Below, in pieces: positions 22,530 through 51,775 of a stretch of 64,000 bases of DNA (its first letter is position 1; each line of letters starts with the position of its first letter). Origin of the DNA: an uncultured Desulfobacter sp. (GTDB lineage: Bacteria > Desulfobacterota > Desulfobacteria > Desulfobacterales > Desulfobacteraceae); NCBI GenBank assembly GCA_963665095.1, contig OY762069.1, positions 640,001-704,000 of the forward strand, written 5' to 3'. The position numbers were made by a program, and so were the translations under genes. The notes beneath the pieces were generated by a model, which saw only the letters and a list, made by a program, of their open reading frames with translations, was not told the DNA's origin and ran no database searches.

Positions 22530-23936
22530 GTGATATGTGTTGTGAAACAGGCGGTCGTTTTAGCAGGATTGCTAATCATGATTGCTTTTGCCCGGGAGGG
22601 CATGGCAGCAGAAGATAGCTACACGCTTGAATTTACTCAGACCGAGCGGAAATGGCTGGATCAGAAAAGGACATTGCGGTTCAGTGAAGTTAACTGGAAG
22701 CCCCTGTCCGATGTTGACGGGTTTCCTGTCTACCAGGGTATTATTGCAGAGTATTTGAAACTTGTATCCGATGCCACGGGTATTAAAATGGCGTTTCACA
22801 AAAGTGACACGTGGCATGACGTTATTGAAAAATTTAAAGCCGATAAGATTGATTTAATACCGGCGCTCTCCATCCGGGATGATATCGGGGTCGATGTTGT
22901 ATTTACCCAGCCCTACCTGACCTTTCCGCTGGTAATCGCAACACGGCCGGCCATTGATTTCATCGGCTATACCAATGAATTAAATAAAAAAATAGTTGGT
23001 GTCGGCAGAAACTATACCAGTTATTATTTTTTGAAAAACAATTACCCGAAAATCACCCTGATCCAGACAGACGATGTGCCGCAAGGTCTGAAAATGTTGG
23101 AAGGCGGTGAGATTGATGCTTTTGTGGGGCACCTGGCTGTTATCCTGCATACCATCAACAATACCACGTTGAATGTCAAGATTGCGGGCAAAACAGAATA
23201 TGATTTTGAACACCGGATGGGGTTTCATAAAAATGATGAGATCGCTGCAGGGATATTCAATAAGGTGTTTTCACAGATTCCGGATCAGCAGCACAATCTG
23301 ATTTATAATAAATGGATTGAAATGGGCGATAAAAGGATCAACTATGCACTGATCTGGAAAGTAGCCGTCATTCTGGCCGTGTTTTTTTCAGGTGTGGGTG
23401 CGGTCATTATTTATCGATATTACCTTTTGAATCAGTTAAACCAAAAGCTGATAACAATGGCCAATACAGATGCCCTGACCCAGTGTGCCAATAGGAAAAA
23501 AATAAATGAGGATTTAAAGCTGGCAGAGTATAACTGGCATCGGTACCATATCCCTTTCAGTCTTATTCTGATTGATCTGGATAATTTCAAGCATGTTAAT
23601 GATTCATTCGGCCATGCAGTCGGAGATAAGGTTTTAAAAGATCTTTCTTTAATTTTGAAAAATAATGTCAGGATAACAGATACCGTTGGCCGGTGGGGTG
23701 GCGAGGAGTTTTTGATTGTCTGCGGGAATACCAATATCTACGGGGCAAAAGAGACAGCAGAAAAACTACGCAAACTTATCCATTCCCATCACTTTCCGGA
23801 AATAGAAAACATGACCGCCTCCTTTGGCATTTCCCAGTGCGGGGAAGAGGAGTTAATCAAAGATTTTTTTGTCCGTATTGATGCGGCCCTTTATCGCGCC
23901 AAAGAAAAGGGGAAAAATCGTATTGAGATATCATAG
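22530..23936 (+). CDS. Diguanylate cyclase with a periplasmic substrate-binding (SBP family 3) sensor
   Basis: Signal peptide, SBP domain, TM helix, DLDNFKHVNDSFGH, RWGGEEF. Confidence 0.95.
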   Translation: MICVVKQAVVLAGLLIMIAFAREGMAAEDSYTLEFTQTERKWLDQKRTLRFSEVNWKPLSDVDGFPVYQGIIAEYLKLVSDATGIKMAFHKSDTWHDVIEKFKADKIDLIPALSIRDDIGVDVVFTQPYLTFPLVIATRPAIDFIGYTNELNKKIVGVGRNYTSYYFLKNNYPKITLIQTDDVPQGLKMLEGGEIDAFVGHLAVILHTINNTTLNVKIAGKTEYDFEHRMGFHKNDEIAAGIFNKVFSQIPDQQHNLIYNKWIEMGDKRINYALIWKVAVILAVFFSGVGAVIIYRYYLLNQLNQKLITMANTDALTQCANRKKINEDLKLAEYNWHRYHIPFSLILIDLDNFKHVNDSFGHAVGDKVLKDLSLILKNNVRITDTVGRWGGEEFLIVCGNTNIYGAKETAEKLRKLIHSHHFPEIENMTASFGISQCGEEELIKDFFVRIDAALYRAKEKGKNRIEIS

Positions 23937-24334
23937 TCCCCCATTTTGTGAGTATGTGCGAAGGGATTGTCTGCAATCATCTGCAGCAGGCGTTCAATCT
24001 TCGAGTTGCCGCTTTTATTCAATTTTCCTGGCAGGGAATGCCAGTGAAAAGCAGCGGTAAGGCAGAGTCTGGGAAGCATTGGAAAGCCAGGACAAATGTT
24101 TGTATCTGCTTGCTGGCCGGAATCGCTTTATGGACACAATCAAGACGATTTTTTTTGTATAAAAGACAGTTTCATGGCCAAAATTTTTTATCCCTGCACT
24201 CAGATTTAGATGAAATATGTAATTGCAACTGAAGCAAAGGAGAGTAAAAAAGTTAGGGGTAAGGTCTCAGGAAATCTTCCCAAAGGTAAGGCGTCCTGAA
24301 TTGTCTGATTGAAGATCCGGGATTAACAATAAGC

Positions 24335-24363
24335 TTGACAAATATTGGGTTCCTTTATATAGC
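24335..24363 (+). promoter_or_regulatory. Candidate sigma70 promoter of the RiPP operon
   Basis: TTGACA-17 nt-TATAGC, about 90 nt upstream of the ATG at 24456. Confidence 0.55.
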
Positions 24364-24455
24364 TTTTACATTATTCGTATAAGAAATTTGTGGTTCAAGT
24401 GGTCGGGCGGATTTAATTGCACAAATGTAATAATTGTGATTGAAGACGTGGAGTT

Positions 24456-24920
24456 ATGTGGAGAATCAAACTCACTTTTGAAGTGATAACAGCTTTTGTT
24501 CATGCCAACTTAATTTTGTTGTTTACTAAAAACAAAATTCAAGTGCCTGCTGTAACAGAATCGACGTATTCTTATACTCAGGAAATTCAAAAATGGGTGA
24601 AATTTACCGATTTTCTTTTAAAATTCATGATTTACACACGCAAACACAATTGTTTTTTCAGGTCATTTGTTCGTATGAAAATATTAAGAAAAAGGAATGT
24701 ACCGGTAAAACTGAATATTGGTCTTCGAAATCTTGACGCGGATATTCATACACGTGGGCATTGCTGGCTGACGCTCGAAGACAGTCTGTTTTATGAAAAC
24801 ATGCTGTCTGAAACGCATCTGCTCCCTGATAAATTGTATCCTTTTTTTTTAGGTTCTTATAACGATGTGGTGTATTGGGTGAATGGGAAAGATGGAGATG
24901 ATTTAGTGAGATCGTCATAA
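24456..24920 (+). CDS. Lasso peptide biosynthesis B2-type leader peptidase (transglutaminase-like)
   Basis: NCFFRS...VKLNIG...GHCWL matches the CLxRS / GV / AHAW Cys-His pattern of B2 proteases; adjacent to an RRE gene. Confidence 0.82.
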   Translation: MWRIKLTFEVITAFVHANLILLFTKNKIQVPAVTESTYSYTQEIQKWVKFTDFLLKFMIYTRKHNCFFRSFVRMKILRKRNVPVKLNIGLRNLDADIHTRGHCWLTLEDSLFYENMLSETHLLPDKLYPFFLGSYNDVVYWVNGKDGDDLVRSS

Positions 24921-24972
24921 CGTAAACAGTAAAAATAAAAATTCTTGGAATTTGAAAGGTATAGAACGTAAC

Positions 24973-25260
24973 ATGCCAAGTCAAATTAACGATCAGGATA
25001 AATTCAAGCCAGTTGATGAAGTAACCTGGCGGGATATCAATGATGAAGTTGTTGCATTAAAGCTGGTTTCAGGGGAATATTATTCTTTTAATGAAATTGG
25101 AAGGCTTTCGTGGCTCTCTTTGACAGAAGGCAAACAGGTTTCACAAATTGTTGAAGATATCCTTAACAATTATGAAACAACCCCGGATCAGGCTGAAAAA
25201 GACTTGAATGAATTTATCCATGGATTGATAGAAAATAATTTATTGATCAAGGATGAATAA
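24973..25260 (+). CDS. PqqD-family RiPP recognition element (lasso B1-like)
   Basis: VTWRDINDEVVAL..GEYYSFNEIGRLSWLSL...AEKDLNEFIHGLIENNLL is the typical PqqD pattern; about 95 aa. Confidence 0.92.
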   Translation: MPSQINDQDKFKPVDEVTWRDINDEVVALKLVSGEYYSFNEIGRLSWLSLTEGKQVSQIVEDILNNYETTPDQAEKDLNEFIHGLIENNLLIKDE

Positions 25261-25299
25261 TTAGAATAAGTAAAAACTATGAAAGGAGGTGGGAAAAGG

Positions 25300-25383
25300 A
25301 TGAAAAAAGAATATGTTGCCCCAATGTTTTTCAAACATGCACCGCTGGAATCAGTAAGTACTACTTATTATTACTACTACTAA
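25300..25383 (+). CDS. Putative RiPP precursor peptide MKKEYVAPMFFKHAPLESVSTTYYYYY (27 aa; not in the ORF track)
   Basis: Strong SD AAGGAGGT at 25283-25290; YxxP leader motif; directly downstream of the RRE gene; ends in five Tyr then TAA (an alternative in-frame ATG lies at 25279). Confidence 0.88.
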   Translation: MKKEYVAPMFFKHAPLESVSTTYYYYY

Positions 25384-25488
25384 GTGGTGATTGGGTTATC
25401 TGTTGGATGAGACAGACAATCCGTGAGTCGGCTTTGTCTATTAATTTTAGGATGGACCCGATTTAATTTCAAACATGCAGTTCAAAGG

Positions 25489-25529
25489 ATATTGGCCAAG
25501 CGCCACTCTAAGTGGTGTTTGGCCAATAT
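25489..25529 (+). terminator. 19-bp stem-loop downstream of the precursor (attenuator or mRNA-stabilising hairpin)
   Basis: atattggccaagcgccact-cta-agtggtgtttggccaatat (two G-U pairs) followed by ttt. Confidence 0.7.
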
Positions 25530-25541
25530 TTTGGGAAAATT

Positions 25542-26564
25542 ATGGGATACGCACTCGGCGATATAACTTTTGATATTAAAGGATCTGAGACGCTGGTTAA
25601 AAAAGCGGTCTGCATCATGTTTGAGCTTGTCAAATGTCCTTTGAGTGATCCGGAACTTTCATTCCTGGTTCACGAGATTGAAGGGAATAATAGAGCCGCG
25701 CTTGAAAAAATTTTACCTCAATGGAGCGTGGAGAAAGCCCTTTCTCAGCCCCCATCGAATGACGTGGTAATGTACTTTGGCAATTCGTCAGACTTATGTA
25801 CAGAGGTTCTATCCGTCGCCGTTGATGACCTGTCTGTTTTTTGTTGTTATTACAGGCCGACTGATAAGGTTATTCACTATGTCCTTTACAAAAAGAACCC
25901 CGGTGCTGTGCTTTTATCTGTATCTTCAGTGATTGTGCCCACACTTTCAGAGTTGTTTTTTCAACACGCTAAAATGTTATTTCATGCTGCATCTGTTTAT
26001 ATCCCGGAGGCTGACACCGGGGTAATGATCGCTGCAGACAGTGGCGGTGGAAAAACAACCACGACCCTATCTTTATTGAGAAACGGGGCCAAAATGATCT
26101 GTGATGATTTAACCCTCGTCGGACCGGGACAAAATCAGACTTTGACCATGTCAGGGTTTCCCGAAAAAATGAATTTAACTGAAGATACCATATGTTTTTT
26201 CCCGGAATTGGCAGCACTGAGAAATGAGATTGCCCCTAATTTCCATTCAAAAAAATATCCAGTATTAATCAGCGATGTTTATGGAAACAACTGCATGGCT
26301 AAAAGTTGCAGGCTCGATCTTATTTACTTTATTTCCCGTAAGGATGACACGCCTTCTGCTACCCCCATGAATTTGTCTGAAGCATTTGGGAAGCTGTTAA
26401 AAGCCTGTACATTTGCCATAGAGCAGAACCCCACTAAGGAAAGGGCATCAAAATTGTTTTCAATTCTTGGGTCAGCTAAAATTTTTAAGTTGAATTCCGG
26501 AACCGATCCGGACCTGCTTGGCAGATGGATTATGGATAATTGTCAAAAACATTTGGCATCCTGA
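25542..26564 (+). CDS. HPr-kinase-like P-loop kinase (RiPP tailoring type)
   Basis: LFHAASV...MIAADSGGGKTT...MICDDL, the signature of HprK-related kinases. Confidence 0.82.
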   Translation: MGYALGDITFDIKGSETLVKKAVCIMFELVKCPLSDPELSFLVHEIEGNNRAALEKILPQWSVEKALSQPPSNDVVMYFGNSSDLCTEVLSVAVDDLSVFCCYYRPTDKVIHYVLYKKNPGAVLLSVSSVIVPTLSELFFQHAKMLFHAASVYIPEADTGVMIAADSGGGKTTTTLSLLRNGAKMICDDLTLVGPGQNQTLTMSGFPEKMNLTEDTICFFPELAALRNEIAPNFHSKKYPVLISDVYGNNCMAKSCRLDLIYFISRKDDTPSATPMNLSEAFGKLLKACTFAIEQNPTKERASKLFSILGSAKIFKLNSGTDPDLLGRWIMDNCQKHLAS

Positions 26565-26589
26565 TTTGCCAGATGACATCATAACGCGT

Positions 26590-28395
26590 ATGAATGAAAC
26601 TCGGGACAATAATAAATCACATAAAATAAGTGGGTTGGCTATGCTTGGTGACGCCGGTATCAGAACCATATCTATCCGGCGTACTTTAAAGTTTTTGTGG
26701 TATTACACAACACCTTACCTGACGGATCTGGCAAAAACATTTTTAACCTCCCTGCCGTTGATCTGCATGGGATGGACTATCCCCTGGATTTTTAAGAAAG
26801 TAACGGAACTTTTTGTACAGAATACCCCGTTAAAATCCATCATCCTGTGGCTGGTTATCGGGCTGTTAGCTGTCAGTCTCAAAAGTCTTCTCGAGATAAT
26901 TACCCAATACATCATGACCATTCTGCATGTTAAATTAAGTAATGATATCCGCAATGATATATATGAATATATTCAGAAAAATCCTTTAAGTTTTCATGTT
27001 CAGAATCGAAGCGGAGAGTTATCTAGTCTGATAACCAACGATACTTTTTCAGCAGCGGCCGGTGTCCTTGAAACCTATTCAACATTATGGCAGAATCCTG
27101 CAACCATTCTTTGCCTGATTGCTGTGATGCTTTATTTCAATCCTATCCTATCTGTTTTTGCCATCATTTCGGTCCCGATTATCAGTCTGTTAGTGGCAAA
27201 AGCAGGAAAAAAAGCACTTCAGGCAGAAAGAAACTATCTCGACAGGCAGAGCAAAATTCTTGGATGGATGGTTGAGTCTCTGGTAAATATCAAGCAGGTC
27301 AAATCATTCAACCTTGAAGACGAACGTAAGAAAAAAGTTGTTTCATACGGGGAAGATCTGATTCTGTTTCGAAGAAAAGCCCTGATGTCAAAGCTGATCG
27401 TCTCCCCTATCACCGAAATTGCCAGCAGCCTGACATTAATTTTAATGGGAGTTGTCGCATATCATCAGTTAGCCAACGGCTACACGACCTCCGGTGATAT
27501 TGTTGGCTGCCTTACTGCAGCCATCAGTCTAAAAAAACCCATTAAATCATTGTCTACTTCTTACGTTATTCTGCAAAAATCCATCGCGGCCATTGGAAGA
27601 ATCTCAGGGGTCGTTGGTACAATCACCGAGGTGGATGACGGCCGTGATTTTAATGAGTTGGTAAATGAAATTTCTTTCAAAAATATCGGCTATTCCTATG
27701 ACGGCCGCCATACTATTTTAAACCAGGTATCCTTTAAGATCCGTAAAGGTGAGAAAGTTGCCATCATAGGAAAATCAGGAGCAGGGAAAACCACATTGAT
27801 AGATTTACTCATTGGTTTTTTTCCCTGTCAGAAAGGTGAAATTGAAATCAACCAGATAAATCTGAAACAGATCCAACCAGCCTCCTGGCGAAGACATATC
27901 GGTGTTGTCACCCAGGAGCCCTATCTTTTTGATACAAGCATTGAAGAAAATATACGGGTGGGAGATCCGTCTGCCTCAGATGATCGCATCATGGACGTGA
28001 TCCGTCAGGCTGGCTGCAGCGAAATCATATCCAGACAACCCTATGGTATGCATACCAAGGTCGGGGAAAGAGGATTGCGGCTTTCAGGTGGTGAGCGCAA
28101 ACGTATTGCCCTTGCGCGCGCCCTGATACGTCCCATATCTGTCTTAATCCTTGATGAGGCCACAGGTGAGCTGGATCATGAAACTGAAAAAGGTATCCTT
28201 GAAACCATTGCCAGATTGTCATCAGATCTCATTATTATTCATGTTTCCCACAGAGACAGCGTACTTGATTATTGTGACCGGGCATTGATGATTAACCAGG
28301 GCAGGGTTCAGGAGGTGAGCATTGAGGCGTGCCGGGATAAGATCAAAACGCTGCAGAATGGGGATGTCGAGAAAAAAAGGGCTTCATTCAGGTGA
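26590..28395 (+). CDS. ABC transporter, fused permease/ATPase (exporter); start codon uncertain
   Basis: TM domain; GKSGAGKTT, LSGGERKRIALARA, LILDEAT; no N-terminal C39 peptidase domain. Confidence 0.93.
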   Translation: MNETRDNNKSHKISGLAMLGDAGIRTISIRRTLKFLWYYTTPYLTDLAKTFLTSLPLICMGWTIPWIFKKVTELFVQNTPLKSIILWLVIGLLAVSLKSLLEIITQYIMTILHVKLSNDIRNDIYEYIQKNPLSFHVQNRSGELSSLITNDTFSAAAGVLETYSTLWQNPATILCLIAVMLYFNPILSVFAIISVPIISLLVAKAGKKALQAERNYLDRQSKILGWMVESLVNIKQVKSFNLEDERKKKVVSYGEDLILFRRKALMSKLIVSPITEIASSLTLILMGVVAYHQLANGYTTSGDIVGCLTAAISLKKPIKSLSTSYVILQKSIAAIGRISGVVGTITEVDDGRDFNELVNEISFKNIGYSYDGRHTILNQVSFKIRKGEKVAIIGKSGAGKTTLIDLLIGFFPCQKGEIEINQINLKQIQPASWRRHIGVVTQEPYLFDTSIEENIRVGDPSASDDRIMDVIRQAGCSEIISRQPYGMHTKVGERGLRLSGGERKRIALARALIRPISVLILDEATGELDHETEKGILETIARLSSDLIIIHVSHRDSVLDYCDRALMINQGRVQEVSIEACRDKIKTLQNGDVEKKRASFR

Positions 28396-29222
28396 TGACT
28401 GCAACCATTTTAAATAGCAAAAAACAAAATCTGGCCTGTTTTTTTGACCGCCCGTCTAACTGCCGTGTTCTTCAGGAGGACCGGAATAAGGTGCTTTTAA
28501 AAACTGAGGATCCGGAAAATGCGCTTTTTATAAAAATTTTTAAATATCCGGAACTGATCGCTTCAAGATTTCAATATGGCAGATTTTCAGGTGGTAACCT
28601 TGAGCTTAAAAACTGTTTCAGACTGGCCCGGAAAGGTATTCGAACACCTGAGCCCATTGGCAGTGCCGTAAAACGAAACCGGCTTGGTTTTCCTGTCCAG
28701 TCCCTCTATGCGGCCCGGTGGGTTAAGGATTCATTTCCATTGCCGGTTTATATGGACCGGGGCTTGGCAGGCCGGCTTTCAAGTGGGTTTTCAATGGAAC
28801 GGTTCGTTGAAAATCTTGGGGTTTTTGTAGGGAAAATCAATCGTCAGGGTATATATTCCACAGACTTTAATGTAAGAAATTTTCTTGTAACACAGAGGAC
28901 AGAGTCTGAGAAAAATGGATCTGAAGAAATTTTTCTTGTGGACTATGAACGACTTTTTTTCAGAAGAGAAGTAAAATTGAAAGGTGCGCTTGTCGGTTTG
29001 TCCCATATAGGGGCACACCTGGTTTATGTGGATCCGGAGTTGATTTTTCCTTTCTGCACCGGTTTTGTCCGTCAATATTCGATTGGAATACCCTGTAAGG
29101 CTTTCGCTGATCTGGTAATGACGGCCTCTTTGAAAAAAAAGGAGCAATGGGATAGGGGCATTGCGAAAAAATTTGATCGGATAGCACGGCATATGTCCCA
29201 GAAAAGTTCTTCCAAAGGATAA
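28392..29222 (+). CDS. Kdo/WaaP (InaA)-family protein-kinase-like kinase
   Basis: LFIKIF, E..N...L...GIRTPEPIG, GIYSTDFNVRNFLV, FLVDYE. Confidence 0.78.
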   Translation: MMTATILNSKKQNLACFFDRPSNCRVLQEDRNKVLLKTEDPENALFIKIFKYPELIASRFQYGRFSGGNLELKNCFRLARKGIRTPEPIGSAVKRNRLGFPVQSLYAARWVKDSFPLPVYMDRGLAGRLSSGFSMERFVENLGVFVGKINRQGIYSTDFNVRNFLVTQRTESEKNGSEEIFLVDYERLFFRREVKLKGALVGLSHIGAHLVYVDPELIFPFCTGFVRQYSIGIPCKAFADLVMTASLKKKEQWDRGIAKKFDRIARHMSQKSSSKG

Positions 29223-29228
29223 ATATTA

Positions 29229-30314
29229 TTGATTTCAAAACCATCTCCCTTTATTGATGCTGAGTCCGGCAAGAAACTGTTAAGCAAACTGCTGCTCAGT
29301 CAGATGAATGCAGAGTCCCAGGATTTACGGCCGGTGCTCGGCCATCTGTCAGCGCACAGGTGGAGTAACTGGGTAACTGCCCACGGGTTCTCAAGCCTTT
29401 TTTTATATGCATGCAGTGACAGGGATATGATCCCTGAGTCCGTGCGGTTACAGTGGGAAAAGCTGCAGATCCAGCTCATGTTTAAAAATATTGGATTTTT
29501 TAAGACCGCGGACATGTTATTTGGGGAGCTTGAGAATGCTGGGATCAAAGCGGTTGCCATGCGGGGGGTGACACTTTTATATAAAATATATGCGGATCCC
29601 TGCATAAGGGTGATGGGAGATGTTGATATACTGATAAATCCACAGGATCATGAGATGCTGCGAACTTATCTGGCTGAAAGAAATTTCATCCCTAAAGCCA
29701 TTCATCGCAGCCAGTATGTCTACAAATTTGGCACCAGCAATGTTGAAATCCACTGGTCTTTAATTACGGCAAGGCGATACCGGGAAAGGATGGATACATC
29801 TGAGTTTATCTCAACCAGGCAACCTTTAGAGGTTAAGGATGGCCGTATTTTCTGCCTTACACCCGAAAATGAGTTGATTGGTCTGATAACCCATGCTGTT
29901 ATCCACCATGAACTTACCATCCTTAAACAGCTCTTTGATATTGCCCTTTATCTGCCCATGCCGGGTATCGACTGGCATTATATCGCAACTTGGTGTCGTA
30001 ACGCCCAGATGACCCGGATGTTTGTTTTTACCATCCAGTTGACAGGCCGCCTTTTTGAACTGGACGTGTCAAATATCCTTGGCCATTTTTACATCCAGCT
30101 TCCCAAATCCTGGGGAAAAATTATTGACGCATATATTGACGCTTTTTTTACAGTGGATATGTCGCAACTGTTTGCCCGAAAAAGAAATGCCATATACATG
30201 GCTGAAGGCCCATTAAAAAAGCTTGAGCAGTTTTTCACAATGTTCAGCATGTCCGAGGCAAAGGATATTTATAAAAGATATTTTGAAATTGATCACAAAG
30301 AGATAACAAATTAA
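29229..30314 (+). CDS. Nucleotidyltransferase family protein (NTP_transf_5 type, as found in some lasso clusters)
   Basis: MRGVTL...Y..PCIRVMGDVDILI, VEIHW, HAVIHH, LFDIA. Confidence 0.85.
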   Translation: MISKPSPFIDAESGKKLLSKLLLSQMNAESQDLRPVLGHLSAHRWSNWVTAHGFSSLFLYACSDRDMIPESVRLQWEKLQIQLMFKNIGFFKTADMLFGELENAGIKAVAMRGVTLLYKIYADPCIRVMGDVDILINPQDHEMLRTYLAERNFIPKAIHRSQYVYKFGTSNVEIHWSLITARRYRERMDTSEFISTRQPLEVKDGRIFCLTPENELIGLITHAVIHHELTILKQLFDIALYLPMPGIDWHYIATWCRNAQMTRMFVFTIQLTGRLFELDVSNILGHFYIQLPKSWGKIIDAYIDAFFTVDMSQLFARKRNAIYMAEGPLKKLEQFFTMFSMSEAKDIYKRYFEIDHKEITN

Positions 30315-30329
30315 TGTCACCGTTGAATT

Positions 30330-32495
30330 ATGCAAATGAAAAGCATTGAAACAAAAACAAGTAAATTTATGAATCAGGCCATTGAGATCCATCCTGATAA
30401 TCCGGATTGGAAAAACAAAGGGAACAGGGTGCGTGTTCTGTTTATCGCAGTGAACATTACAGGGTACTACAGCCTTCCGGTAAGAATTCATACCCTGATG
30501 CTCAGCCGTGATCCACAGTTCATGGAAAATTTTGATTTCAGATTTATTGAATTTGAGAATATAGAACCCGTTGATCGTCTGTTCCGGGTGACCAACGGAC
30601 TTTGTCCTGATATCATAGGTTTTTCTGTCAATATCTGGAACCGGGATATCTGTTTTCAACTTGCTGAGCGGCTGAAAACTGCCAACCCCCGTATTAAATG
30701 CATTGCGGGCGGCCAGGAGATGACCAATTCAACCGTTGATTATCTGAGCAGCCATCCTGAGATCGATTACATTATTGACGGGGAAGGAGAGATCCCACTG
30801 ACCCAGTTTTTGGCAAACTGGGATGCCGATCAACTTGATATACATGCGCCTGAAACGGTTTCAGGGCTTCATTACAGAAAAAACGGCACCCATGCTTTTA
30901 CAGGTCCTGCTCAGCTCGTGGACAGTCTCGACGATATCCCGTCCCCTATATTGTCCGGCCTGATTAACCCTGAAATCAGATACAGATTAGGCACCATGAT
31001 TGAAGGAACACGGGGGTGTCCGTTTAAATGCAGTTTTTGTTTTGAAGGCGGAGAAAAAAGAAAAGTAAGAACCGCATCCCTGGCGCGTATCAAAGAAGAA
31101 ATTGAATTTATGGCATCAAGAGGTGTGAAGTTTTTTCACCTTATGGATCCCATTTTATGCAACAGCAGCCCGGCCAGACTGAAAGAACTCGCCCGGTTTT
31201 TTGACAAAATGAATGCGCAGTATAAAGATATCGTGGTCTCTGTGGAAGCCTATGCCCACCATATTACCCTTGAAGTGGCCCAGTGCCTGAAAAACTTTCG
31301 CCTGATTGATATTGGGCTTCAAACGGTGAACCCTGAGACGGCAAAAGCCATTCACCGGCCGTGGCAGCCTGAAAAATTTAAAGCAGGGCTGGATTTTTTA
31401 AGGCAGGTCAAAGCACGGTTTACCATTTATTTAATCTGCGGGCTTCCCCACGAAACACTTGAGTCATTCATTGAAGGCATGTGTGTGGTCATCAATGAAA
31501 ATCCCTCCCAGCTTTTTTTTAATGAATTACTGCTGCTCAATGGCACCGAGCTTCGCAGAAGAGCGGTGGAGTATGGATACGTTTATGATGAGGCGCCGCC
31601 TTATCAGGTACACGCCAATCTGTGGATGAATAAAACCCAGCTCAGACTTGCCAACCTGATCGCAAAAGATGTTGAAAAGCGATATAACTTCTCTGCCAGA
31701 GCGGTTCATGCCAATTCTCCATGGGTTCCCGCAATTGCGGAAAGGTTTGACCATGCTGTTAAGATGGTTCCGGGAACCAGCTGCTCACAGAACTGTCCCG
31801 GATGCAGTCGGTCTGAAAATCAGACGGCCACGTTTTTCAATGATGCTGTCCTGTCACAATTAAACAGCACGGCAAACCGGGATATTGAAATTATCCTTGG
31901 TGACAGGTTTGAAAAAAATGACCTTCTCAAACTTATTGGCCAGCTGGTGCTGGCGGGCAGTGCCCGAATTAAGCTGGCAGCTCCGGTTCAGATTTTTGCC
32001 GATAGAGAGTGGCTCGAATTACTTGTAAACAGAGGTGTCTGGCATTTTAAGACCTTTATATCCGTACCGGATGATGCCGAATCCACAGATCTGCCAGCCA
32101 TGGTGGAAAATTTCATGAAGCAGCTGGAACATTTCAGTACACCTGTTGATTTAAGGGGGTATGCTTCTATATCACCACATATCGAACTGGTGGTTCTGTA
32201 CCACGATAATATGGATCAAAGTATGTTTTCACAGATTGCTTCCCTGGCGGCACGGACATACATATCTGTTATTACGGTGCCGTCCGATATCATGGACAGC
32301 AAAGGCCAAAGCTGGGAAGACGCGCTTTCGGACATGATCCGGATGGGTATGGACAAAGACACCTGGATTAAACTGCCACGGGGGATATGGCAGACCTATT
32401 TTTCAGATGAGCAGGTGGATACATCTGTTATCACTTCATTGGAAGAACTGGAAATGGTAAGTGCTGAGATTAATCAGCCCCCCTGCTTTGAATAA
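30330..32495 (+). CDS. Cobalamin-binding radical SAM protein with a C-terminal extension bearing a second CxxxCxxC
   Basis: B12 domain (DIIGFSVNIWN, AGGQE, DGEGE), RGCPFKCSFC, IGLQT, LICGLPHET; later CSQNCPGC. Confidence 0.9.
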   Translation: MQMKSIETKTSKFMNQAIEIHPDNPDWKNKGNRVRVLFIAVNITGYYSLPVRIHTLMLSRDPQFMENFDFRFIEFENIEPVDRLFRVTNGLCPDIIGFSVNIWNRDICFQLAERLKTANPRIKCIAGGQEMTNSTVDYLSSHPEIDYIIDGEGEIPLTQFLANWDADQLDIHAPETVSGLHYRKNGTHAFTGPAQLVDSLDDIPSPILSGLINPEIRYRLGTMIEGTRGCPFKCSFCFEGGEKRKVRTASLARIKEEIEFMASRGVKFFHLMDPILCNSSPARLKELARFFDKMNAQYKDIVVSVEAYAHHITLEVAQCLKNFRLIDIGLQTVNPETAKAIHRPWQPEKFKAGLDFLRQVKARFTIYLICGLPHETLESFIEGMCVVINENPSQLFFNELLLLNGTELRRRAVEYGYVYDEAPPYQVHANLWMNKTQLRLANLIAKDVEKRYNFSARAVHANSPWVPAIAERFDHAVKMVPGTSCSQNCPGCSRSENQTATFFNDAVLSQLNSTANRDIEIILGDRFEKNDLLKLIGQLVLAGSARIKLAAPVQIFADREWLELLVNRGVWHFKTFISVPDDAESTDLPAMVENFMKQLEHFSTPVDLRGYASISPHIELVVLYHDNMDQSMFSQIASLAARTYISVITVPSDIMDSKGQSWEDALSDMIRMGMDKDTWIKLPRGIWQTYFSDEQVDTSVITSLEELEMVSAEINQPPCFE

Positions 32496-32527
32496 ATGTA
32501 AATTTTTTGCATGAGAAAGGAATAGTT

Positions 32528-33511
32528 TTGGCAAATATTCTGATAACCAATCATTGTGTGAGGAAATGTACCTTTTGTTTTGCCCGATCCCGAATCGGTC
32601 AGTCGGCGGATACCCAAAAGGCAAGCCATATGTCTTTGGAGAACATACATAAGGTTATGGATTTCCTGGATAAGACAGATGATGATCAGCTCCGGCTTCT
32701 TGGCGGGGAGCCCACACTGCACCCGGAATTCATACGTATTGTTCAAGAGGGGATAGAGAGAAATTTTTATGTCCATATTTTTTCAAACTGCATGATGCCC
32801 AATCGTGTTGTTGATTTTCTTAAAACCGTGCCGGACAATAAATTATCCATTCTTGCAAACGTGTCTCCCCAGGAAAGCGATACCCCGGAACAAAAAAAAC
32901 GGGTGGAACGTACACTTGAACAACTGGGAAAAAAAATAACGGTCGGCATTACAGTGACAGCACCGGAGTTTGAGTATCAATTTCTCTTTGACCTGATAAA
33001 TAAATATAATTTGCGGCGCCGGATCCGGGTCGGCATTGCCCAGCCCATTGTCGGCATCTCAAATGAATTTCTGCCGCCCTCAAAGTACCGGGAAACAGGC
33101 AAGGCACTTGTAAAGATGGCCCTTGACAGCTATGAGCGCGACATGCTTATCGGCTTTGACTGCGGTCTTACCCAGTGTATGTTTTCTGAAATGGAAATTG
33201 GTATTCTGGCAAAGAAAAGCGAAGGATTCAGTATGGTTTGCGACCCCATTATTGATATTGGACCTGAGCTTGATGTCTGGCATTGTTTTCCTTTGTGTGA
33301 AGTTCTCAACACGAAACTGGATATGTTCAGAACCAGAAATCATATTGCAAAATTTTATAATAGCCGGTTAATGCCTTATAAAACATTTGGGTGCATGCCT
33401 GAATGCCGATCATGCGTTCATCTTCACCAGGGAACTTGTACCGGAGGGTGTATAGCCCATGCCATCAACTCGTTTAATCAGAAACCACCAGCAAGAATTG
33501 ATGCCGGTTAA
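32528..33511 (+). CDS. Radical SAM protein with a SPASM/twitch domain
   Basis: TNHCVRKCTFCFA, LLGGEPTLHP; C-terminal C...VWHCFP...CRSC...CTGGC; TTG start after SD 'aaagga'. Confidence 0.9.
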   Translation: MANILITNHCVRKCTFCFARSRIGQSADTQKASHMSLENIHKVMDFLDKTDDDQLRLLGGEPTLHPEFIRIVQEGIERNFYVHIFSNCMMPNRVVDFLKTVPDNKLSILANVSPQESDTPEQKKRVERTLEQLGKKITVGITVTAPEFEYQFLFDLINKYNLRRRIRVGIAQPIVGISNEFLPPSKYRETGKALVKMALDSYERDMLIGFDCGLTQCMFSEMEIGILAKKSEGFSMVCDPIIDIGPELDVWHCFPLCEVLNTKLDMFRTRNHIAKFYNSRLMPYKTFGCMPECRSCVHLHQGTCTGGCIAHAINSFNQKPPARIDAG

Positions 33512-33556
33512 AGCGATCAATTGGGACCCAAAAAGCTGGTTCACGGTGGTGATCAT

Positions 33557-35662
33557 TTAACATAGCTGTATGGTTCTGGTATACAAACGCCGTCTGAATC
33601 TGCTTGGCCTGCTGTCCTTTAGAATACATGACCACGGCAGCACAAGACGGCTGAGATATTTTTTTAAAAAAAACGGTTCAATAAGTTTCAGACCTTGTTC
33701 CGGAACTTTGCCCTGAACGGTTTTCTGCACACAGAACAGGAAATGTGCCAGAGCAGCCTCGTGTTTCCCTGGCCGTGCATGCTTTTGTATCCATTCCCAA
33801 TCTATCTTTTCGCTGTCTTTTTCAAGTATCTGGCGGATATCCACCATTCTGAGCATCCTGTCAAAATGATGTTCCCATATTGCATGAAGGCAGGAAGACA
33901 AGAAAAGATGGTTCACATTCAGACAGTTAATTTCAGTGCCTTGAAGGGAAATCTTTACCGCAGAGTCAAGACAGTTTTTAAACCTAAAAAGAGACGCCTG
34001 GTTTCCGGGCAACATGGGATAGGCATCCCAGTGAATTTCCACTGTTATGCCATTTTTTTGAAATGGCAGCTCTCCTTTGCCCATCCAGTAATCCCTTGTG
34101 CCGAATGGTATTGGTTTATACCCGTTCGCAGTTAAAAGAGATTCGATTTCCGGGATGCTTTGGGTATGGCAGACAATATCTATATCCCGACTGTGCCGCT
34201 GCCAGGGATGGGGATAATAGTTCGAGGCGAATCCCGGGCCCCTGAGGAATAAAAAATCGTGTTGCTGCTCTGTCAGCAGACAATGAACATGAACCGTCTC
34301 TTTACAAAGCTTCACATAACGATTCTTTGCATCGGACATAATTTTTTCAGCATCTACCCATAAAGGAATAGACTGCCCAGCTCTGGATTCTGCCATCCAT
34401 TTGGCGGCAAAGGGTTCCAGCCTGTGATACGTTACCAGATCCCAGATTCTGTGGAAAACAGCAGGGGTGTCCATGTTCACGGCAGGCATTGATTCTTCGG
34501 TTTCAGATGATCCCAGAGAAAAGTCAAGCATATGGTGAAACCATTGAACAGTATCCATGGAATCCATTTTTGCTGATGCGCTGTTACTGGACGGGTGGCC
34601 TGGTTTTTGGTTGTGCTTTTTTTTTGTGGCTGTAAAGGAGAAACCAAATCTGCCTTTGGCTGCCTGACTGGCCAGCCACTCACCTAACTTCACAGGATCG
34701 TTGCCTGTATTGAGTCTATAGATGCTGCACTTTTCTATCAGCCCCCACAGAATTTCCATGCTTTTATCATTTTTTTTTGCCTCATGGGCAAATGTATGAC
34801 CTTTCATCAGAACGGGCAGGCTTTCATGGAGTTCAAGTCTGTTTAAACTGGGGCCTTTTTTTGTGATCCGTGGGATGAGCAGTGCTTTTACAATCCCCTG
34901 GCCGGCCATGCCGTCCTTTTGAAAAATCTGGATCGGGTCCACAGGCGTTTTATAATCCCCTGATCGCTCTTTTTTCAGTTTTATAAAGTCAAGCTCAGGA
35001 AAGAATTCAATGGTTTTCTGTGTCAGGTTCACCTGTTTTGCAATGCCCTCAACAATAATGCCACGTTCTGACACGGACAGGGTAACCAGATCATCAGAAA
35101 TAAAGTGAAATCCTTCACGGGTCAAGGAAATCGTTGTGGACGTTTTGCCACCGCCGCTGTCTGCAATGATCAAAATCGCATCCCCTGCCGGGGATACAAC
35201 ACAACCGGCATGTAGCAGGGCTTTCCCTTGAATTAAGAGTAACTCTCTGAGCGCTGGAATCAGGACTGTGTTAAAGAGTAACGGGCTTTTTCCTGTTTCT
35301 TCGGGCACTTCAGTCACAACCAAAAGATCTGTATACGGCGCCAGTGAAACAGCAAACGCGCTGAGCTCAGCGCCCTTTAAAATAACAACAAAGCCATATT
35401 CTTTATTGTATTCGATATAGGGGTCTTCACCAGGGTCCATTTTCAAATAAATATGTTGCACCCATTCCGGCATTGCGCTGATAAACGCATTGCCTTTTTC
35501 CAAGGTCATTTTGATATCAATTCCCCGGTCTGTCTCCGGGATACGATTTAAAATGAACATCTTGTTAACAGGCCCTGTAAGTATTTCCGGAGGCGAGATG
35601 AAACGCAAGTTCAGGCCGGCCCAGCTATAGCAGAAAATGTCACTTATATTTTTAGATTCCAT
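33557..35662 (-). CDS. Fusion of an HPr-kinase-like domain and a nucleotidyltransferase (NTP_transf_5) domain
   Basis: N-half LLHAGCV...IIADSGGGKTS...ISDDL; C-half LRGPGF...YPHPWQRHSRDIDI, VEIHW, CLHAIWEH, MVDI. Confidence 0.85.
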   Translation of the reverse strand: MESKNISDIFCYSWAGLNLRFISPPEILTGPVNKMFILNRIPETDRGIDIKMTLEKGNAFISAMPEWVQHIYLKMDPGEDPYIEYNKEYGFVVILKGAELSAFAVSLAPYTDLLVVTEVPEETGKSPLLFNTVLIPALRELLLIQGKALLHAGCVVSPAGDAILIIADSGGGKTSTTISLTREGFHFISDDLVTLSVSERGIIVEGIAKQVNLTQKTIEFFPELDFIKLKKERSGDYKTPVDPIQIFQKDGMAGQGIVKALLIPRITKKGPSLNRLELHESLPVLMKGHTFAHEAKKNDKSMEILWGLIEKCSIYRLNTGNDPVKLGEWLASQAAKGRFGFSFTATKKKHNQKPGHPSSNSASAKMDSMDTVQWFHHMLDFSLGSSETEESMPAVNMDTPAVFHRIWDLVTYHRLEPFAAKWMAESRAGQSIPLWVDAEKIMSDAKNRYVKLCKETVHVHCLLTEQQHDFLFLRGPGFASNYYPHPWQRHSRDIDIVCHTQSIPEIESLLTANGYKPIPFGTRDYWMGKGELPFQKNGITVEIHWDAYPMLPGNQASLFRFKNCLDSAVKISLQGTEINCLNVNHLFLSSCLHAIWEHHFDRMLRMVDIRQILEKDSEKIDWEWIQKHARPGKHEAALAHFLFCVQKTVQGKVPEQGLKLIEPFFLKKYLSRLVLPWSCILKDSRPSRFRRRLYTRTIQLC

Positions 35663-35679
35663 TATAATATTCCATGGCG

Positions 35680-37572
35680 TTAAAAATAGGTTTCCAGCCA
35701 TATGGCAATGGATATCAGACCAATAAAAAGATCCCTGTCCATTGGTACGCCGCATCGGTATAAGGTGTACATTTGCTGAATCCCGGCAGGATCAAATAGT
35801 CCGGAATCCGCTAATGTGTCAGAAAAAAGTTTGGACTCAATGAATTGTGCACTATCTTCCTGAATCCACTGGGCATACGGAACCGTTCCCCCGAAACCTA
35901 TTTTGGTACATTTCAATGTTGTGTCAGGCAACCTGTCCGCCATGGCTTTTTTAAATATATTTTTTGATATTGGCTGGTGCAGGTTGTCCCCTATTTTTAA
36001 CCTGGCGGGGATTCTTGCGGCCAGTTCAACCATGTTAACATCAAGAAATGGGGAGCGTATTTCAACGCCATGGGCCATTCCCATCCGGTCGTTTATTTCT
36101 GAAAAACTGTATTGACTGACGCAGTTCAGGTGCTGGGCAAACAACCCGTCGAAAAGATTATCAGCACCGCTGTCCAGGTATGCGCTGGCACAAATGTCAG
36201 ACGGCGTGTTCTCTTGGCAGATTTCCAGCATAGCGTCAGTATATATTTTTTTTTGAATGTCCAGGTGATTGTATCGAAGGGCGGGGAAAGCCCGTTCCGG
36301 ATGACACCCGGCGCGCTTCCCTATAATTTCAAGTGCAAATTTTTCATCTTTTGTAAGGCCCTTTTCGGGGAGTGCCAGGGCGCCTTTGGCATTCGTCCAT
36401 TTCCCAAGATAATGATCCCAAAGATGCATCAGTGCATGGTCATTGTACCCTCCGAACAACTCGTCTCCCCCTGCACCGCAAAATGCCACTTTAACACTTT
36501 TCCCTATTTCCTGTGACAGCAGGTAGGCATCCATGGGAACAGGGGTGGCAATGGGTTCCCCATGATGACGGATTACCTCTTTCATTACAGAAAAATTGTC
36601 AGACCGGATGTTATATTCAAAATGCCTTGTCTGGTATCTGTCTGCTATCTGTCTTGCAGAAAGGGTTTCCTGGACATTTGCCGGGGTCTCTTCCTGTGCG
36701 CTGATACGAAAAGTTGGAAAGTCTTTGAGCGCTCTGCTCATGGAGGCCACAACCGCGCTGGAGTCAATGCCGCCGGATAACAGCGCGCCAACCGGGGTGT
36801 CAGACCGGCACATAAGAGAAACAGTCTGATCAAAACAGTTTCTGATCTCTTCAATGCACTCTTGTTCATCAGAAAGCCGGCTTGACGGGTCAAAGGTGCA
36901 GGACCAGTATTGGGTCAATTCAGCACGGTCATATGAAATTTCAATATAGTGGGCCGGAGGAAGTTTTTTGATATCCTTGAAAGCAGTTTTCGGCGCGATG
37001 GGATGCATAAAAGACATTGCCAGATTAATCCCCACAGGATCAATTCGTCTCGGAACTTCCGGGCATGAAAGAATCGCTGGAATTTCAGAGGCAAAAATAA
37101 ATTTATGGCTGTCTTCAAAATAATAAAGGGGTTTTTCTCCCATTCTGTCCCGGGCAATGAACAGTTTGCGGGTCTTCTGGTCCCAAATGGCAAATGCATA
37201 CATACCTCTGAGTAACGAGAGACATTGAGCCCCGGTTCGTTTATACAGCAGTAAGACAACTTCTGTATCACTTTGGGTGGCAAAGGACTCTCCCTGCCGG
37301 ATAAGCTGTTCCCGAAGTGAGCGAAAATTATAGATCTCTCCGTTAAAGGCGATGGTAAAACGGCCACAGGGTGAGGTCATGGGCTGATCAGAACGTGGTA
37401 CCGGATCCATAATGGCCAGACGGTTTACGCCTAATGCAATAGGGCTTTGGGTGAATGTTCCCTGGCTGTCCGGGCCCCGATGCGCTATGGCCTGAAGCAT
37501 GATTTCCAACTCTTTTTGAAGGGTGTTGCTCTCCTTGCTGTTTCTCTGAAAAATTCCCGCAATTCCGCACAT
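35680..37572 (-). CDS. Asparagine synthetase B-like glutamine amidotransferase
   Basis: MCGIAG (Ntn Cys), FNGEIYN, ARDRMGEKPLY, LLSGGIDSS, GGDELFGGY, EIRSPFLD. Confidence 0.93.
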   Translation of the reverse strand: MCGIAGIFQRNSKESNTLQKELEIMLQAIAHRGPDSQGTFTQSPIALGVNRLAIMDPVPRSDQPMTSPCGRFTIAFNGEIYNFRSLREQLIRQGESFATQSDTEVVLLLYKRTGAQCLSLLRGMYAFAIWDQKTRKLFIARDRMGEKPLYYFEDSHKFIFASEIPAILSCPEVPRRIDPVGINLAMSFMHPIAPKTAFKDIKKLPPAHYIEISYDRAELTQYWSCTFDPSSRLSDEQECIEEIRNCFDQTVSLMCRSDTPVGALLSGGIDSSAVVASMSRALKDFPTFRISAQEETPANVQETLSARQIADRYQTRHFEYNIRSDNFSVMKEVIRHHGEPIATPVPMDAYLLSQEIGKSVKVAFCGAGGDELFGGYNDHALMHLWDHYLGKWTNAKGALALPEKGLTKDEKFALEIIGKRAGCHPERAFPALRYNHLDIQKKIYTDAMLEICQENTPSDICASAYLDSGADNLFDGLFAQHLNCVSQYSFSEINDRMGMAHGVEIRSPFLDVNMVELAARIPARLKIGDNLHQPISKNIFKKAMADRLPDTTLKCTKIGFGGTVPYAQWIQEDSAQFIESKLFSDTLADSGLFDPAGIQQMYTLYRCGVPMDRDLFIGLISIAIWLETYF

Positions 37573-37831
37573 ACGCCAGCGCCTTTGATTTGATTACACC
37601 TGAAAACAGTTTGCCTCTCGTTAGCACAATAAGATATAGCGGTCAACGACAAACCTGCTCCCCTGAGCCACCATCAAGGCACACTTGTAAAGGCTGCCAG
37701 TGATTATTCCGGCAAATTGACTGAAAGTCAGACCTGTGTACGGCACCTCTTTATTTAATCATTCAAACACGGCACAGTTAGTTTGCAAGTTAGATGAATA
37801 TGGGGGCTATATGACAATGGCCTGTCAAGAA

Positions 37832-39625
37832 TCAGGTATCACACGAATCAATATGTGGTTTGAGTTCAGGCATTTTCTCCATGGTGTACTCATACCCGAT
37901 ATCAATGATCTCTTTTGCATTGTTATAGGCTGTTAAAGGGAAATGGGAAACCGGCAGCTCAAGGTAATAATCTGCCAGCGACATAATACGCTTGCGCTGG
38001 GCAAGGCCGCCGATCTGGTTGGCATAGGTCAGAATGGATTTCAGGCCGGGCATGGCGGATGACTTTTTATTAAACCGGGACTTGATGACATCCCAGTTGT
38101 TGAGCGCTGTGGTCTGGGGGTCCACACAGATGTCCTCTTTAATGTCAACATCCAGGGCAATGATGGTGCCGTTGCCCCGCCGCCGTTCAAGGGCGGTGCC
38201 CAGCCGCCCGCGCATGGCCTGAACCGGGACGTTTTCCAGAATGGCCCCGTCCACCATCAACTGGCCGTCTTTTATTACGGGGGGCAAAAGGCCTGCCGGA
38301 GAATTGCTGGCCAGAACCGCCTGCCACAAGGGGCCTGAATCAATGACGGTAGTGTCGGCACGGCTTAAGTTGCAGGCGGCTGAAAAATAGGTCATCCAGA
38401 TATTTTGTACCTGTGTATCCCCAAAAATTTTTCTAAGCGACTTTTCATAATTCCTGCCGGAAAAAATGGATACAATGGGAAGGTCTAATTTGATGATGCC
38501 TTTGGTAAATTTCAGGATGGTACTGTGAATCTCTTCTCTGGGAATCCCAAAGGCATAGAATGCCCCGATAAGGGCGCCCATACTGTTACCGCCTAAAAGA
38601 TCCACTGGAATGCCGTTCTCTTCAAATGCTTTTAATGCACCTAAATGGGCAAAGCCCCTGGCTCCGCCGCCACCGAGCACGATGCCGACGGCCTTGCCCA
38701 CTAGAAACCGGGCAATGCGCTGGTAATCGGACAGATCCTCCGGGCTTGCCGGATATACGCGCTCCACATCCCTGGGATGCTGCCATGCCAGTTTGTCATC
38801 ACACAGGCTTGATTTGCCAGGGTGAAGAACAATGAGATGTTTCCTCATCAGCCGGGTACCGGGGTCATTGGCAAGAAGTATTTCAACCGGTGACAACTCC
38901 TTTCCTGAGCCTGCGTCCGCCACAAAAAGTATTTGATCCGCATGCTTGAAGTTTTCAAGCGGTGAGTTTGTATCAGATAGCCGGACCTGATAAACAAGAA
39001 AATCGTTTTCTGCTTCCAGGGCATCAATGTTCAGATGTTCACCAGAGAATGTAGTTTCCAGCAGGACGTGGCGGGCCCTGCCCATATCTGAAAATGCAAG
39101 GGTCAGATTATGGGTGACCCGGTCGGCATCCACGCTGTCTGTCAGCGGAATAACGACAAATGAGTGGGCCCGTTTCTGGCTTTCCACCCTTCGGGCATGG
39201 CGCAGGTGATTGTATATGGCCTGGGAAAAAACACGGTTTATTTCCACCGGATATTTTTTAAGCAGAGACTCGAAATCTTTTTTTAAAAGAACGCCCAGGA
39301 CCGATGTTCTTAAGGCTGTAATATCCGCAGCCCTTTGCTGGTCCAGGATCACCCCTAACTCCCCGACGATTTCACCAGGCAGAATCTCATTGAACAGCAT
39401 GATATTGCCGTCTTTGCCCTGCCTTGATACTCTTAACCTGCCGGAAACCAGTATGAAAAGAGAGTCTACATTATCCCCTTCAGATATCACCTGGGTGCCG
39501 CCTGCCACCTCTCGGATCTGAAGCGTGTCAACCAGTTCGTTTAAAACCGGGTCGGGAAGTTTTCGGAATTCCAGACCAACTTTAAGCAACTCCACAATCT
39601 GATCTTTGTAAAACTTCATTTCCAC
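37832..39625 (-). CDS. Cyclic-nucleotide-binding patatin-like phospholipase (NTE/RssA-like)
   Basis: cNMP domain (GEIVGELG..QRAADI), GGGGARGFAH, GNSMG, VDGA. Confidence 0.92.
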   Translation of the reverse strand: MEMKFYKDQIVELLKVGLEFRKLPDPVLNELVDTLQIREVAGGTQVISEGDNVDSLFILVSGRLRVSRQGKDGNIMLFNEILPGEIVGELGVILDQQRAADITALRTSVLGVLLKKDFESLLKKYPVEINRVFSQAIYNHLRHARRVESQKRAHSFVVIPLTDSVDADRVTHNLTLAFSDMGRARHVLLETTFSGEHLNIDALEAENDFLVYQVRLSDTNSPLENFKHADQILFVADAGSGKELSPVEILLANDPGTRLMRKHLIVLHPGKSSLCDDKLAWQHPRDVERVYPASPEDLSDYQRIARFLVGKAVGIVLGGGGARGFAHLGALKAFEENGIPVDLLGGNSMGALIGAFYAFGIPREEIHSTILKFTKGIIKLDLPIVSIFSGRNYEKSLRKIFGDTQVQNIWMTYFSAACNLSRADTTVIDSGPLWQAVLASNSPAGLLPPVIKDGQLMVDGAILENVPVQAMRGRLGTALERRRGNGTIIALDVDIKEDICVDPQTTALNNWDVIKSRFNKKSSAMPGLKSILTYANQIGGLAQRKRIMSLADYYLELPVSHFPLTAYNNAKEIIDIGYEYTMEKMPELKPHIDSCDT

Positions 39626-51772: not shown

Positions 51773-51775
51773 ATT

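Follow-up and report, generated by a model that had tools for sequence, protein, structure and literature searches.

A candidate RiPP gene cluster with a poly-tyrosine precursor and two radical SAM enzymes in an uncultured Desulfobacter

Organization and distribution of the locus

The window analyzed here, 64,000 nucleotides from an uncultured Desulfobacter sp. (GCA_963665095.1, contig OY762069.1, positions 640,001 to 704,000 of the forward strand), contains a cluster of about 13 kb that pairs a tiny peptide gene ending in a Tyr run with lasso-type binding and cutting proteins and predicted tailoring enzymes. Very probably this is a genuine and conserved gene cluster for a peptide that is ribosomally synthesized and modified post-translationally (RiPP), since the precursor is coding and travels with the genes of a RiPP recognition element (RRE), a B2 peptidase, an NTP_transf_5 protein, a cobalamin-dependent radical S-adenosylmethionine enzyme (B12-rSAM), a SPASM-type radical SAM enzyme (SPASM-rSAM), and an HprK-like kinase. 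Taken as a whole, an earlier reading of the same DNA (the original prediction) was correct in calling a RiPP cluster, but the core length, the class definition by eight tailoring domains, and the nucleotidylation that it also proposed were unsupported or overstated. The cluster consists of the following features (window coordinates):

24456..24920, plus strand: lasso-B2-type cysteine leader peptidase, 154 aa (PF13471)
24952..25260, plus: discrete RRE (B1/PqqD), probable start ATG 24973 (PF05402, E 1e-13)
25284..25289, plus: ribosome-binding site AGGAGG, 10 nt ahead of the precursor ATG (sequence)
25300..25383, plus: precursor, 27 aa, with YxxPxF leader (Tyr at 25312), HxPLESVS junction, and five-Tyr end (53 distinct homologs)
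25369..25377, plus: Tyr triad anchored to the leader (positions 20-22 with the leader Tyr as 1), predicted radical SAM site (precursor alignment)
25512..26564, plus: HprK-like peptide kinase (PF07475 below cut-off; His158, Walker A, and DD motifs)
26518..28395, plus: MsbA-like ABC exporter, accessory (PF00664 and PF00005)
28392..29222, plus: Kdo/WaaP-family kinase, accessory (PF06293)
29229..30314, plus: NTP_transf_5 protein, PsmN/LppN-like, with DxD motif (PF14907, E 2e-34; D131 and D133 conserved)
30330..32495, plus: cobalamin-dependent (B12) radical SAM enzyme (PF02310 and PF04055)
32507..33511, plus: radical SAM/SPASM enzyme, 334 aa, unnamed subfamily, no fused RRE (structure model, fold search)
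33557..35755, minus: HprK-like kinase fused to NTP_transf_5, accessory (PF07475 and PF14907)
35680..37572, minus: AsnB-type glutamine amidotransferase, accessory, with Cys-led GATase and Asn synthase domains (TIGR01536)

All eleven genes lie in the order, on the strands, and at the places originally predicted; the minus-strand AsnB and kinase-nucleotidyltransferase (NTase) fusion genes converge on the plus-strand genes. Catalytic motifs look intact in the HprK and NTase domains (two of each), in B2, AsnB, and the Kdo kinase, and in the two radical SAM enzymes. Positions 24454-37572 form a block that aligns end to end with a genome of the same genus (G020) at 73% identity, while the flanks had no match in the 30 kb of G020 that were compared. 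The GC content of the cluster is 43.7%, against 48.7% for the genome, a value that only 28 of 526 genome tiles equal or undercut, and an orthologous SPASM-rSAM occurs in only 2 of 60 relatives (1 of 24 within the genus). The cluster therefore is a discrete, patchily distributed unit. Rfam gave no match in 23000-39000, and signals in a promoter and terminator scan of the cluster region were at or below chance.

A single-sequence query of the GTDB loci with the SPASM-rSAM had no match, and an alignment was needed as query; with it, 79 loci were obtained from GTDB and 80 from metagenomes. Twenty-four of the GTDB loci, at 43-67% rSAM identity, belong mostly to Desulfobacterota, with additional members in Nitrospirota, Cloacimonadota, and two Verrucomicrobia. 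The hosts are sulfate reducers and other anaerobes in a scattered distribution, among them Desulfosarcina variabilis (L031) as a named cultured carrier.

Precursor peptide

The precursor open reading frame (ORF) could open at 25279 (34 aa), but because AGGAGG precedes the ATG at 25300, we prefer the 27-aa start. That this short ORF is a real gene, as originally proposed, is borne out by 53 distinct precursors; of the 24 genomes with an orthologous SPASM enzyme, 22 carry a precursor. Thus, homologous loci do keep a YxxP...Y(n) ORF by precursor profile, the check that had been suggested for the prediction. Fourteen of the 24 genomes contributed to this profile, and 8 of the remaining 10 matched it; the two without a match are Verrucomicrobia metagenome-assembled genomes (MAGs), which branch outside the rest on the rSAM tree. 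Among 400 other genomes of the phylum the profile matched three, at the coordinates of three of the rSAM-bearing genomes, and a search of 1.84 billion representatives yielded 29 representative clusters that match, each of them with a leader and a Tyr run. In the 6.9 Mb of the own genome there are three six-frame reading stretches ending in at least four Tyr, only one of them with the leader motif, and the precursor is single copy. No Pfam or NCBIfam model matches the window precursor, and none of NCBIfam matches the four homologous precursors scanned.

The family pattern is YxxPxFxxHxPLESVS-x(2-3)-Tyr-run. Counted from the leader Tyr, the conserved columns are Y1 (52 of 53), P4 (53), F6 (45), H9 (43), P11 (45), L12 (44), E/D13 (48), S/T14 (45), V/A15 (52), and S/A/G/T16 (53). 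A Tyr triad at positions 20, 21, and 22 is found in 53, 52, and 52 of the 53 precursors, respectively, in a set whose retrieval by profile favors conserved columns, the triad included; its position is constant with respect to the leader and not to the C-terminus. Asp and Glu are lacking after position 15 in 52 of the 53, the exception being an Asp at position 17, and a Thr usually precedes the Tyr run without being invariant (T18 in 28/53, T19 in 10/53). Since Tyr codons are mixed (86 TAC and 78 TAT in 25 DNA sequences) and leader divergence peaks at third codon positions (0.32/0.24/0.67), the precursor is a coding sequence; the same two observations exclude a microsatellite origin of the Tyr run.

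A core of 5-6 residues, as in the original prediction, was not confirmed. Published systems are cited here and below from the available parts of the respective reports. The leader aromatic residue lies at -15 in PbaA or -16 in LppA (PMC13381572) and at -17 in BsfA (PMC10368454), and these registers give cores of 8, 7, and 6 residues here; five fits none of them. In the -15 register, Ser/Thr falls at -2 and a small residue at +1, with family cores of 8-15 aa; in the -16 register, position -2 is Val, as it is in leaders of the Bsf type. Two tandem precursors occur in one locus (L030:3905-4128), the second of which is degenerate, with the leader Tyr changed to Cys and a broken Tyr run.

Core and accessory genes

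RRE, B2, precursor, NTP_transf_5, B12-rSAM, SPASM-rSAM, and HprK-like kinase form a near-constant core. B2 is present in 22 of the 24 genomes (by a profile partly built from these genomes), NTP_transf_5 in 22 of 24 loci, and the B12-rSAM in 23 of 24; an HprK-like domain was matched in at least 20 genomes, and 23 had a match to either an HprK or an NTase domain. The remaining genes vary: a close AsnB homolog was found in 10 of the 24 genomes, every time at the cluster, and not in the other 14; nine genomes have the Kdo kinase, and these nine are also the ones with the full-length kinase-NTase fusion, the pair having been gained or lost together about four times on the rSAM tree, kin not being independent; and the ABC exporter is absent from several long loci. 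Because AsnB, Kdo kinase, fusion, and exporter vary among loci, the eight-domain set that had been taken to define the class does not define the family. It also misses a further rSAM of about 490 aa, encoded in 9 of the 24 loci and without an ortholog in the own genome. The window thus holds one of the richest versions of the family cluster.

Several loci carry lineage-specific additions, such as a DUF2079 membrane protein (L043:8624-10441, also L023 and L181), a sulfotransferase (L101:10953-11933), a formyltransferase (L031:13080-13757), and a CAAX protease (L025:8183-8977). In Desulfamplus magnetovallimortis (L044, L212) the cluster is split into halves about 20 kb apart, one adjoined by an integrase fragment, and the precursor leader has diverged with an intact Tyr run. 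In the window, a patatin-like phospholipase with a cyclic nucleotide (cNMP)-binding domain (37832-39625) is encoded next to the cluster boundary. Further downstream (39938-52867) lies a separate cluster with a flippase-like membrane protein, a single-module non-ribosomal peptide synthetase (C-A-T-TE), and a 1786-aa ORF, which is not common to the compared stretch of G020.

Leader recognition and removal

As originally proposed, lasso-type RRE/B2 machinery accompanies a Tyr-rich core in a conserved RiPP cluster that contains no cyclase. The nearest solved structures of the RRE are TbiB1, PbaB1, TfuB1, and LppB. Its D77 and F81 are at least 90% conserved and preserve the Asp-x3-Phe pair, which in LppB holds the leader Tyr and Pro (PMC13381572). 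Motif and pocket residues are consistent with this, and the RRE likely binds the YxxPxF leader. The B2 peptidase just exceeds the PF13471 cut-off (26.3 bits against 26) and stays below that of NF033537 (26.8 against 33); Cys66 and His102 are invariant in 23 of 23 aligned homologs.

Radical SAM enzymes

Pfam calls no SPASM domain in the 334-aa rSAM, nor does the protein reach any NCBIfam cut-off. The SPASM label is nevertheless upheld, because its AlphaFold model (pLDDT 90.7) matches SuiB best (Z 20.5, root-mean-square deviation 3.5 Å over 291 aligned residues, 14-16% identity); the fold matches comprise SuiB, anSME, ChlB, SkfB, CteB, and PqqE at 12-20% identity. The C-terminal Cys residues are conserved. 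In a FastTree phylogeny the poly-Tyr clade (support 0.93) groups with RRE/B2 clusters whose short YxxP precursors end in YYH or YYW (L051:9236-9400, L058:4323-4448, L142:22-252, and L162:8302-8487). L058 has nearly the enzyme set of the poly-Tyr cluster plus a WD40 protein, and L051 keeps the SPASM enzyme, with NTP_transf_5 absent from the stretch examined.

Among more distant SPASM homologs, 58 of 115 loci contain ORFs ending in aromatic-x-aromatic-P-N/T/C, mainly YWYPN or YYYPN, and most of the encoded proteins are WD40 propellers whose tails are rich in Cys. This pattern was chosen after the data were seen; it occurs at 43 of 61 loci over 12 kb, compared with 5 of 43,607 ORFs of the own genome. 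Because a C-terminal Tyr-aromatic-Tyr is common to these precursors and proteins and the triad is fixed to the leader, the Tyr triad is the likely target of the SPASM enzyme. In such distant loci (L045, L052, L055-L057, L141, L146, L153, L157, L163, L171, L177, and others) WD40 proteins are encoded in arrays; their N-termini are twin-Arg-like, their tails are rich in Cys, and they end in a conserved Y-W/Y-Y-P-N. RefSeq has only generic names for them.

The best family of the B12-rSAM is KedN5, with 142 bits where the cut-off is 700, and its nearest solved structures are CysS and TokK. Its C-terminus holds a partly degenerate second rSAM-like domain with a CxxxCxxC at residue 485 that is kept in most, not all, orthologs. 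An Atlas lead links this domain to rSAM clusters, with low shared-feature counts. Profile-profile comparison did not align it to the SPASM enzyme and matched only the N-terminal CxxxCxxC motifs, so the call rests on the motif and the low-count lead. ApyD, a B12-rSAM, beta-methylates Tyr (PMC11117315), while another, PbsB, cross-links YTY with no methylation (PMC12257519). Methylation is favored here over Tyr-x-Tyr coupling because the nearest enzymes CysS, TokK, and KedN5 are methylases. A second type of B12-rSAM occurs in L032 (11026-12867) and L035 (9744-11723), the latter apparently having only this type in the available stretch.

Kinases, nucleotidyltransferases, and AsnB

In pseudomycoidin biosynthesis PsmK phosphorylates the peptide and PsmN is required for mass shifts of +162 and +324 Da, i.e., one or two hexoses on the phosphate (PMC6993621). 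Phospho-glycosylation is therefore better founded for the NTP_transf_5 protein than the nucleotidylation originally suggested. No solved-structure relatives were found for this protein or the Kdo kinase. AsnB exceeds the cut-off of TIGR01536 (406.8 against 267) and fails the lasso cyclase models NF033535 (248.6 against 525) and NF033561; this failure, the lack of an Asp/Glu acceptor, and the finding of close homologs in only 10 of 24 genomes lead us to reject a role as lasso cyclase. By profile and Cys1, it is a predicted glutamine-dependent enzyme. Since the core has no Asp/Glu and the C-terminus is its only carboxyl, the latter would be the natural acceptor.

Proposed pathway and alternatives

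The specific pathway that we propose, with its chemistry deduced throughout, stands marginally better than an even chance. The RRE should grip the YxxPxF leader, and once the modifications described next are in place, B2 should cut after V19, S20, or T21 of the 27-mer, so that a non-lasso peptide of 6-8 residues would be released (calculated core masses 1122.46, 1035.42, or 934.38 Da, respectively). By Cbeta-aryl coupling as in SuiB/triceptide chemistry, the SPASM enzyme would likely join Tyr residues i and i+2 without oxygen (-2 Da), and the B12-rSAM would likely catalyze sp3 methylation (+14 Da each), possibly iterative and most likely at Tyr Cbeta as in ApyD. The HprK-like kinase is predicted to phosphorylate either a Tyr hydroxyl or a Thr/Ser that precedes the Tyr run; NTP_transf_5 would cap the phosphate with a sugar like PsmN. 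AsnB could amidate the C-terminus, and the ABC transporter would export the product. Least securely, the Kdo/WaaP kinase and the kinase-NTase fusion might act as a chain-extending module for the phospho-sugar decoration.

Tentatively, and at somewhat less than an even chance, the cluster may stand for a new RiPP class of anaerobes, in which the unnamed SPASM subfamily and the two-domain B12 enzyme introduce Tyr cross-links and methyl groups into a poly-Tyr peptide independently of oxygen, the tyrosines of this peptide being O-phosphorylated or phospho-glycosylated as well. The same SPASM lineage would then modify Y-W/Y-Y C-terminal motifs of short peptides as well as of full-size WD40 proteins in many phyla.

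Several points weigh against these proposals. The 24-genome set consists of related genomes, many of them incomplete MAGs, and the product, activities, and expression of the family members are predictions from sequence. The Tyr run varies from 2 to 12 residues across the family, which one defined ring does not explain. The Cys-rich tails of the YWYPN proteins are a competing target, on which the rSAM could form thioethers in the way that CrpC modifies a Cys-rich protein (PMC13692751), and the argument from a shared Tyr target would be weakened accordingly. Given the PbsB precedent, the roles of the two rSAMs could also differ from those assigned. As to the kinases, no core position is an invariant Ser/Thr, neither LppK (PMC13381572) nor BsfK (PMC10368454) phosphorylates Ser-to-Tyr variants, and LppN was inactive in a heterologous host (PMC13381572).

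One alternative, unlikely but to be taken seriously, places the main chemistry on the Tyr hydroxyls: the product would be a poly-Tyr bearing several O-linked phosphates or nucleotides, a polyanionic linear peptide that resembles the linear polyphosphorylated peptides (LPPs) and perhaps acts at the cell surface or in metal binding, and the rSAMs would only methylate or epimerize without forming rings. In favor of this, one family core (L039) is devoid of Ser/Thr beyond position 15, although NTP_transf_5, Kdo kinase, and fusion are all retained in its cluster, and three kinase and two NTase domains are available for five Tyr. NTases of this fold modify Tyr in GlnE and GlnD. LPPs, too, are linear and polyphosphorylated (PMC13381572). 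The characterized HprK-type peptide kinases LppK and BsfK, however, reject Tyr, and the SPASM enzyme is most like cross-linkers and is kept in the L051 sister system, which lacks NTP_transf_5 in the stretch examined.

We regard it as improbable that the precursor serves as a feedstock scaffold, as the peptides of PQQ and mycofactocin biosynthesis do, with the rSAMs turning Tyr into a small molecule, similar to a cofactor or able to bind metal, that would be excised and be phosphorylated, nucleotidylated, or glycosylated. The near-homopolymeric Tyr run of variable length, the dispensable exporter, and the anaerobic hosts would fit this, as would Kdo/WaaP kinases, which act on sugars rather than peptides. 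However, the triad is fixed to the leader instead of the C-terminus, no conserved exopeptidase was found among the neighbors examined (the CAAX protease occurs in one subgroup only), and the gene maps show no conserved partner oxidoreductase. A degenerate or unusual lasso cluster with AsnB as cyclase, or a glycolipid or lipopolysaccharide (LPS) modification locus with an incidental short ORF, is very improbable: AsnB and the lasso cyclases are homologs, the MsbA-like transporter and the Kdo kinase are reminiscent of LPS genes, and glycosyl-, sulfo-, or formyltransferases lie near some loci, but there is no acceptor Asp/Glu, AsnB scores as glutamine-hydrolyzing and is missing as a close homolog from most genomes, and the precursor shows selection as a coding sequence and accompanies the cluster.

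The best-known Tyr-Tyr cross-links of RiPPs are products of O2-dependent P450 enzymes (PMC12257519). Should the cross-linked and methylated poly-Tyr peptide proposed here be correct, the family would show dense tyrosine chemistry without oxygen in sulfate reducers and other anaerobes. It further offers two uncharacterized radical SAM subfamilies with a substrate of fewer than 30 residues, a small system for testing the PsmN/LppN-type NTP_transf_5 enzymes, which are still unexplained, and, in the L039 core, a clean test of an HprK-type or Kdo-type kinase on a RiPP tyrosine.

Comparison with known systems

With lasso peptides the cluster shares a discrete RRE, a B2 cysteine peptidase (at the Pfam cut-off only), and a [Y/W]xxPx[hydrophobic] leader. 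An Asp/Glu at core position 7-9 and a macrolactam cyclase in every cluster are lacking; because there is neither acceptor nor cyclase, the predicted product is not a lasso peptide. Pseudomycoidin (PMC6993621), Bsf (PMC10368454), and the paeninodin-like Pba system have the same split B1/B2, HprK-like kinase, PsmN-like NTP transferase, ABC exporter, and type of leader, but, as far as the available parts of the reports describe them, no radical SAM enzymes; their kinases act on Ser/Thr and did not accept Tyr where tested.

The closest relative is the LPP family, published in 2026 (lpp cluster of Paenibacillus alginolyticus, PMC13381572). Both systems have a discrete RRE, a kinase of the HprK-like type, an NTP transferase, an MsbA-like exporter (not universal in the family described here), no cyclase, and a YxxP leader with His at the ninth position. 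LPPs, however, use an SpI signal peptidase, occur in Bacillota, and have precursors of 35-200 aa phosphorylated on Ser3, and their core genes, as listed in the available part of the report, include no rSAM, in contrast to B2, at least two rSAMs, and a poly-Tyr core here. Family scans of the 11 cluster proteins gave no match to any signal peptidase family, archaeal-type signal peptidase I included. The LPP consensus YxxPxVLxHQxIxFETxxS is not matched, the Ser3-equivalent position 19 being Tyr, Thr, Ile, Val, or Phe, and Ser in 0 of 53 precursors. Judged by these sequence features, the cluster is not an LPP cluster, because B2 replaces SpI, Ser3 is missing, and two rSAMs are present.

Among RiPPs with modified tyrosines, aminopyruvatides (ApyD, ApyO; PMC11117315) combine Tyr beta-methylation by a B12-rSAM with a Tyr-x-Tyr cross-link near the C-terminus, but rely on an O2-dependent P450 as cross-linker and a class-defining MNIO; the ApyD family model scores 44 bits here against a cut-off of 750. 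The B12-rSAM of biphenomycin-like RiPPs (PbsB; PMC12257519) is able to couple Tyr-x-Tyr rings, but these systems need MNIO, arginase, and TldD protease and, in the available description, have neither kinases nor B2. Pfam and NCBIfam scans of the cluster proteins found no MNIO, P450, or arginase. The streptide/triceptide cross-linker SuiB shares the fold of the SPASM enzyme, which has no fused RRE and a different substrate, and the fold does not show the reaction. SynChlorMet models stay below cut-off (ScmD 31.5 of 100, ScmC 17.5 of 125), and for ScmF, a relative's accessory rSAM reaches 27 of 400. AsnB resembles the glutamine-dependent asparagine synthetase-like RiPP amidases and nitrile synthase (TsrC, PesC; PMC13060819), whose Glu-Tyr dyad its DExFGGY motif would match by spacing, not by alignment; it is accessory here, with an amide, a nitrile, or a sugar modification as candidate product.

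The literature and the RRE-mining supplements searched contained no description of the cluster, which subscription papers and large datasets could still list. To that extent the original claim that no characterized family shows this combination holds, but the half consisting of RRE, HprK, NTP transferase, and MsbA is already known from the LPPs (PMC13381572), and only the half consisting of B2, rSAMs, and poly-Tyr core is new.

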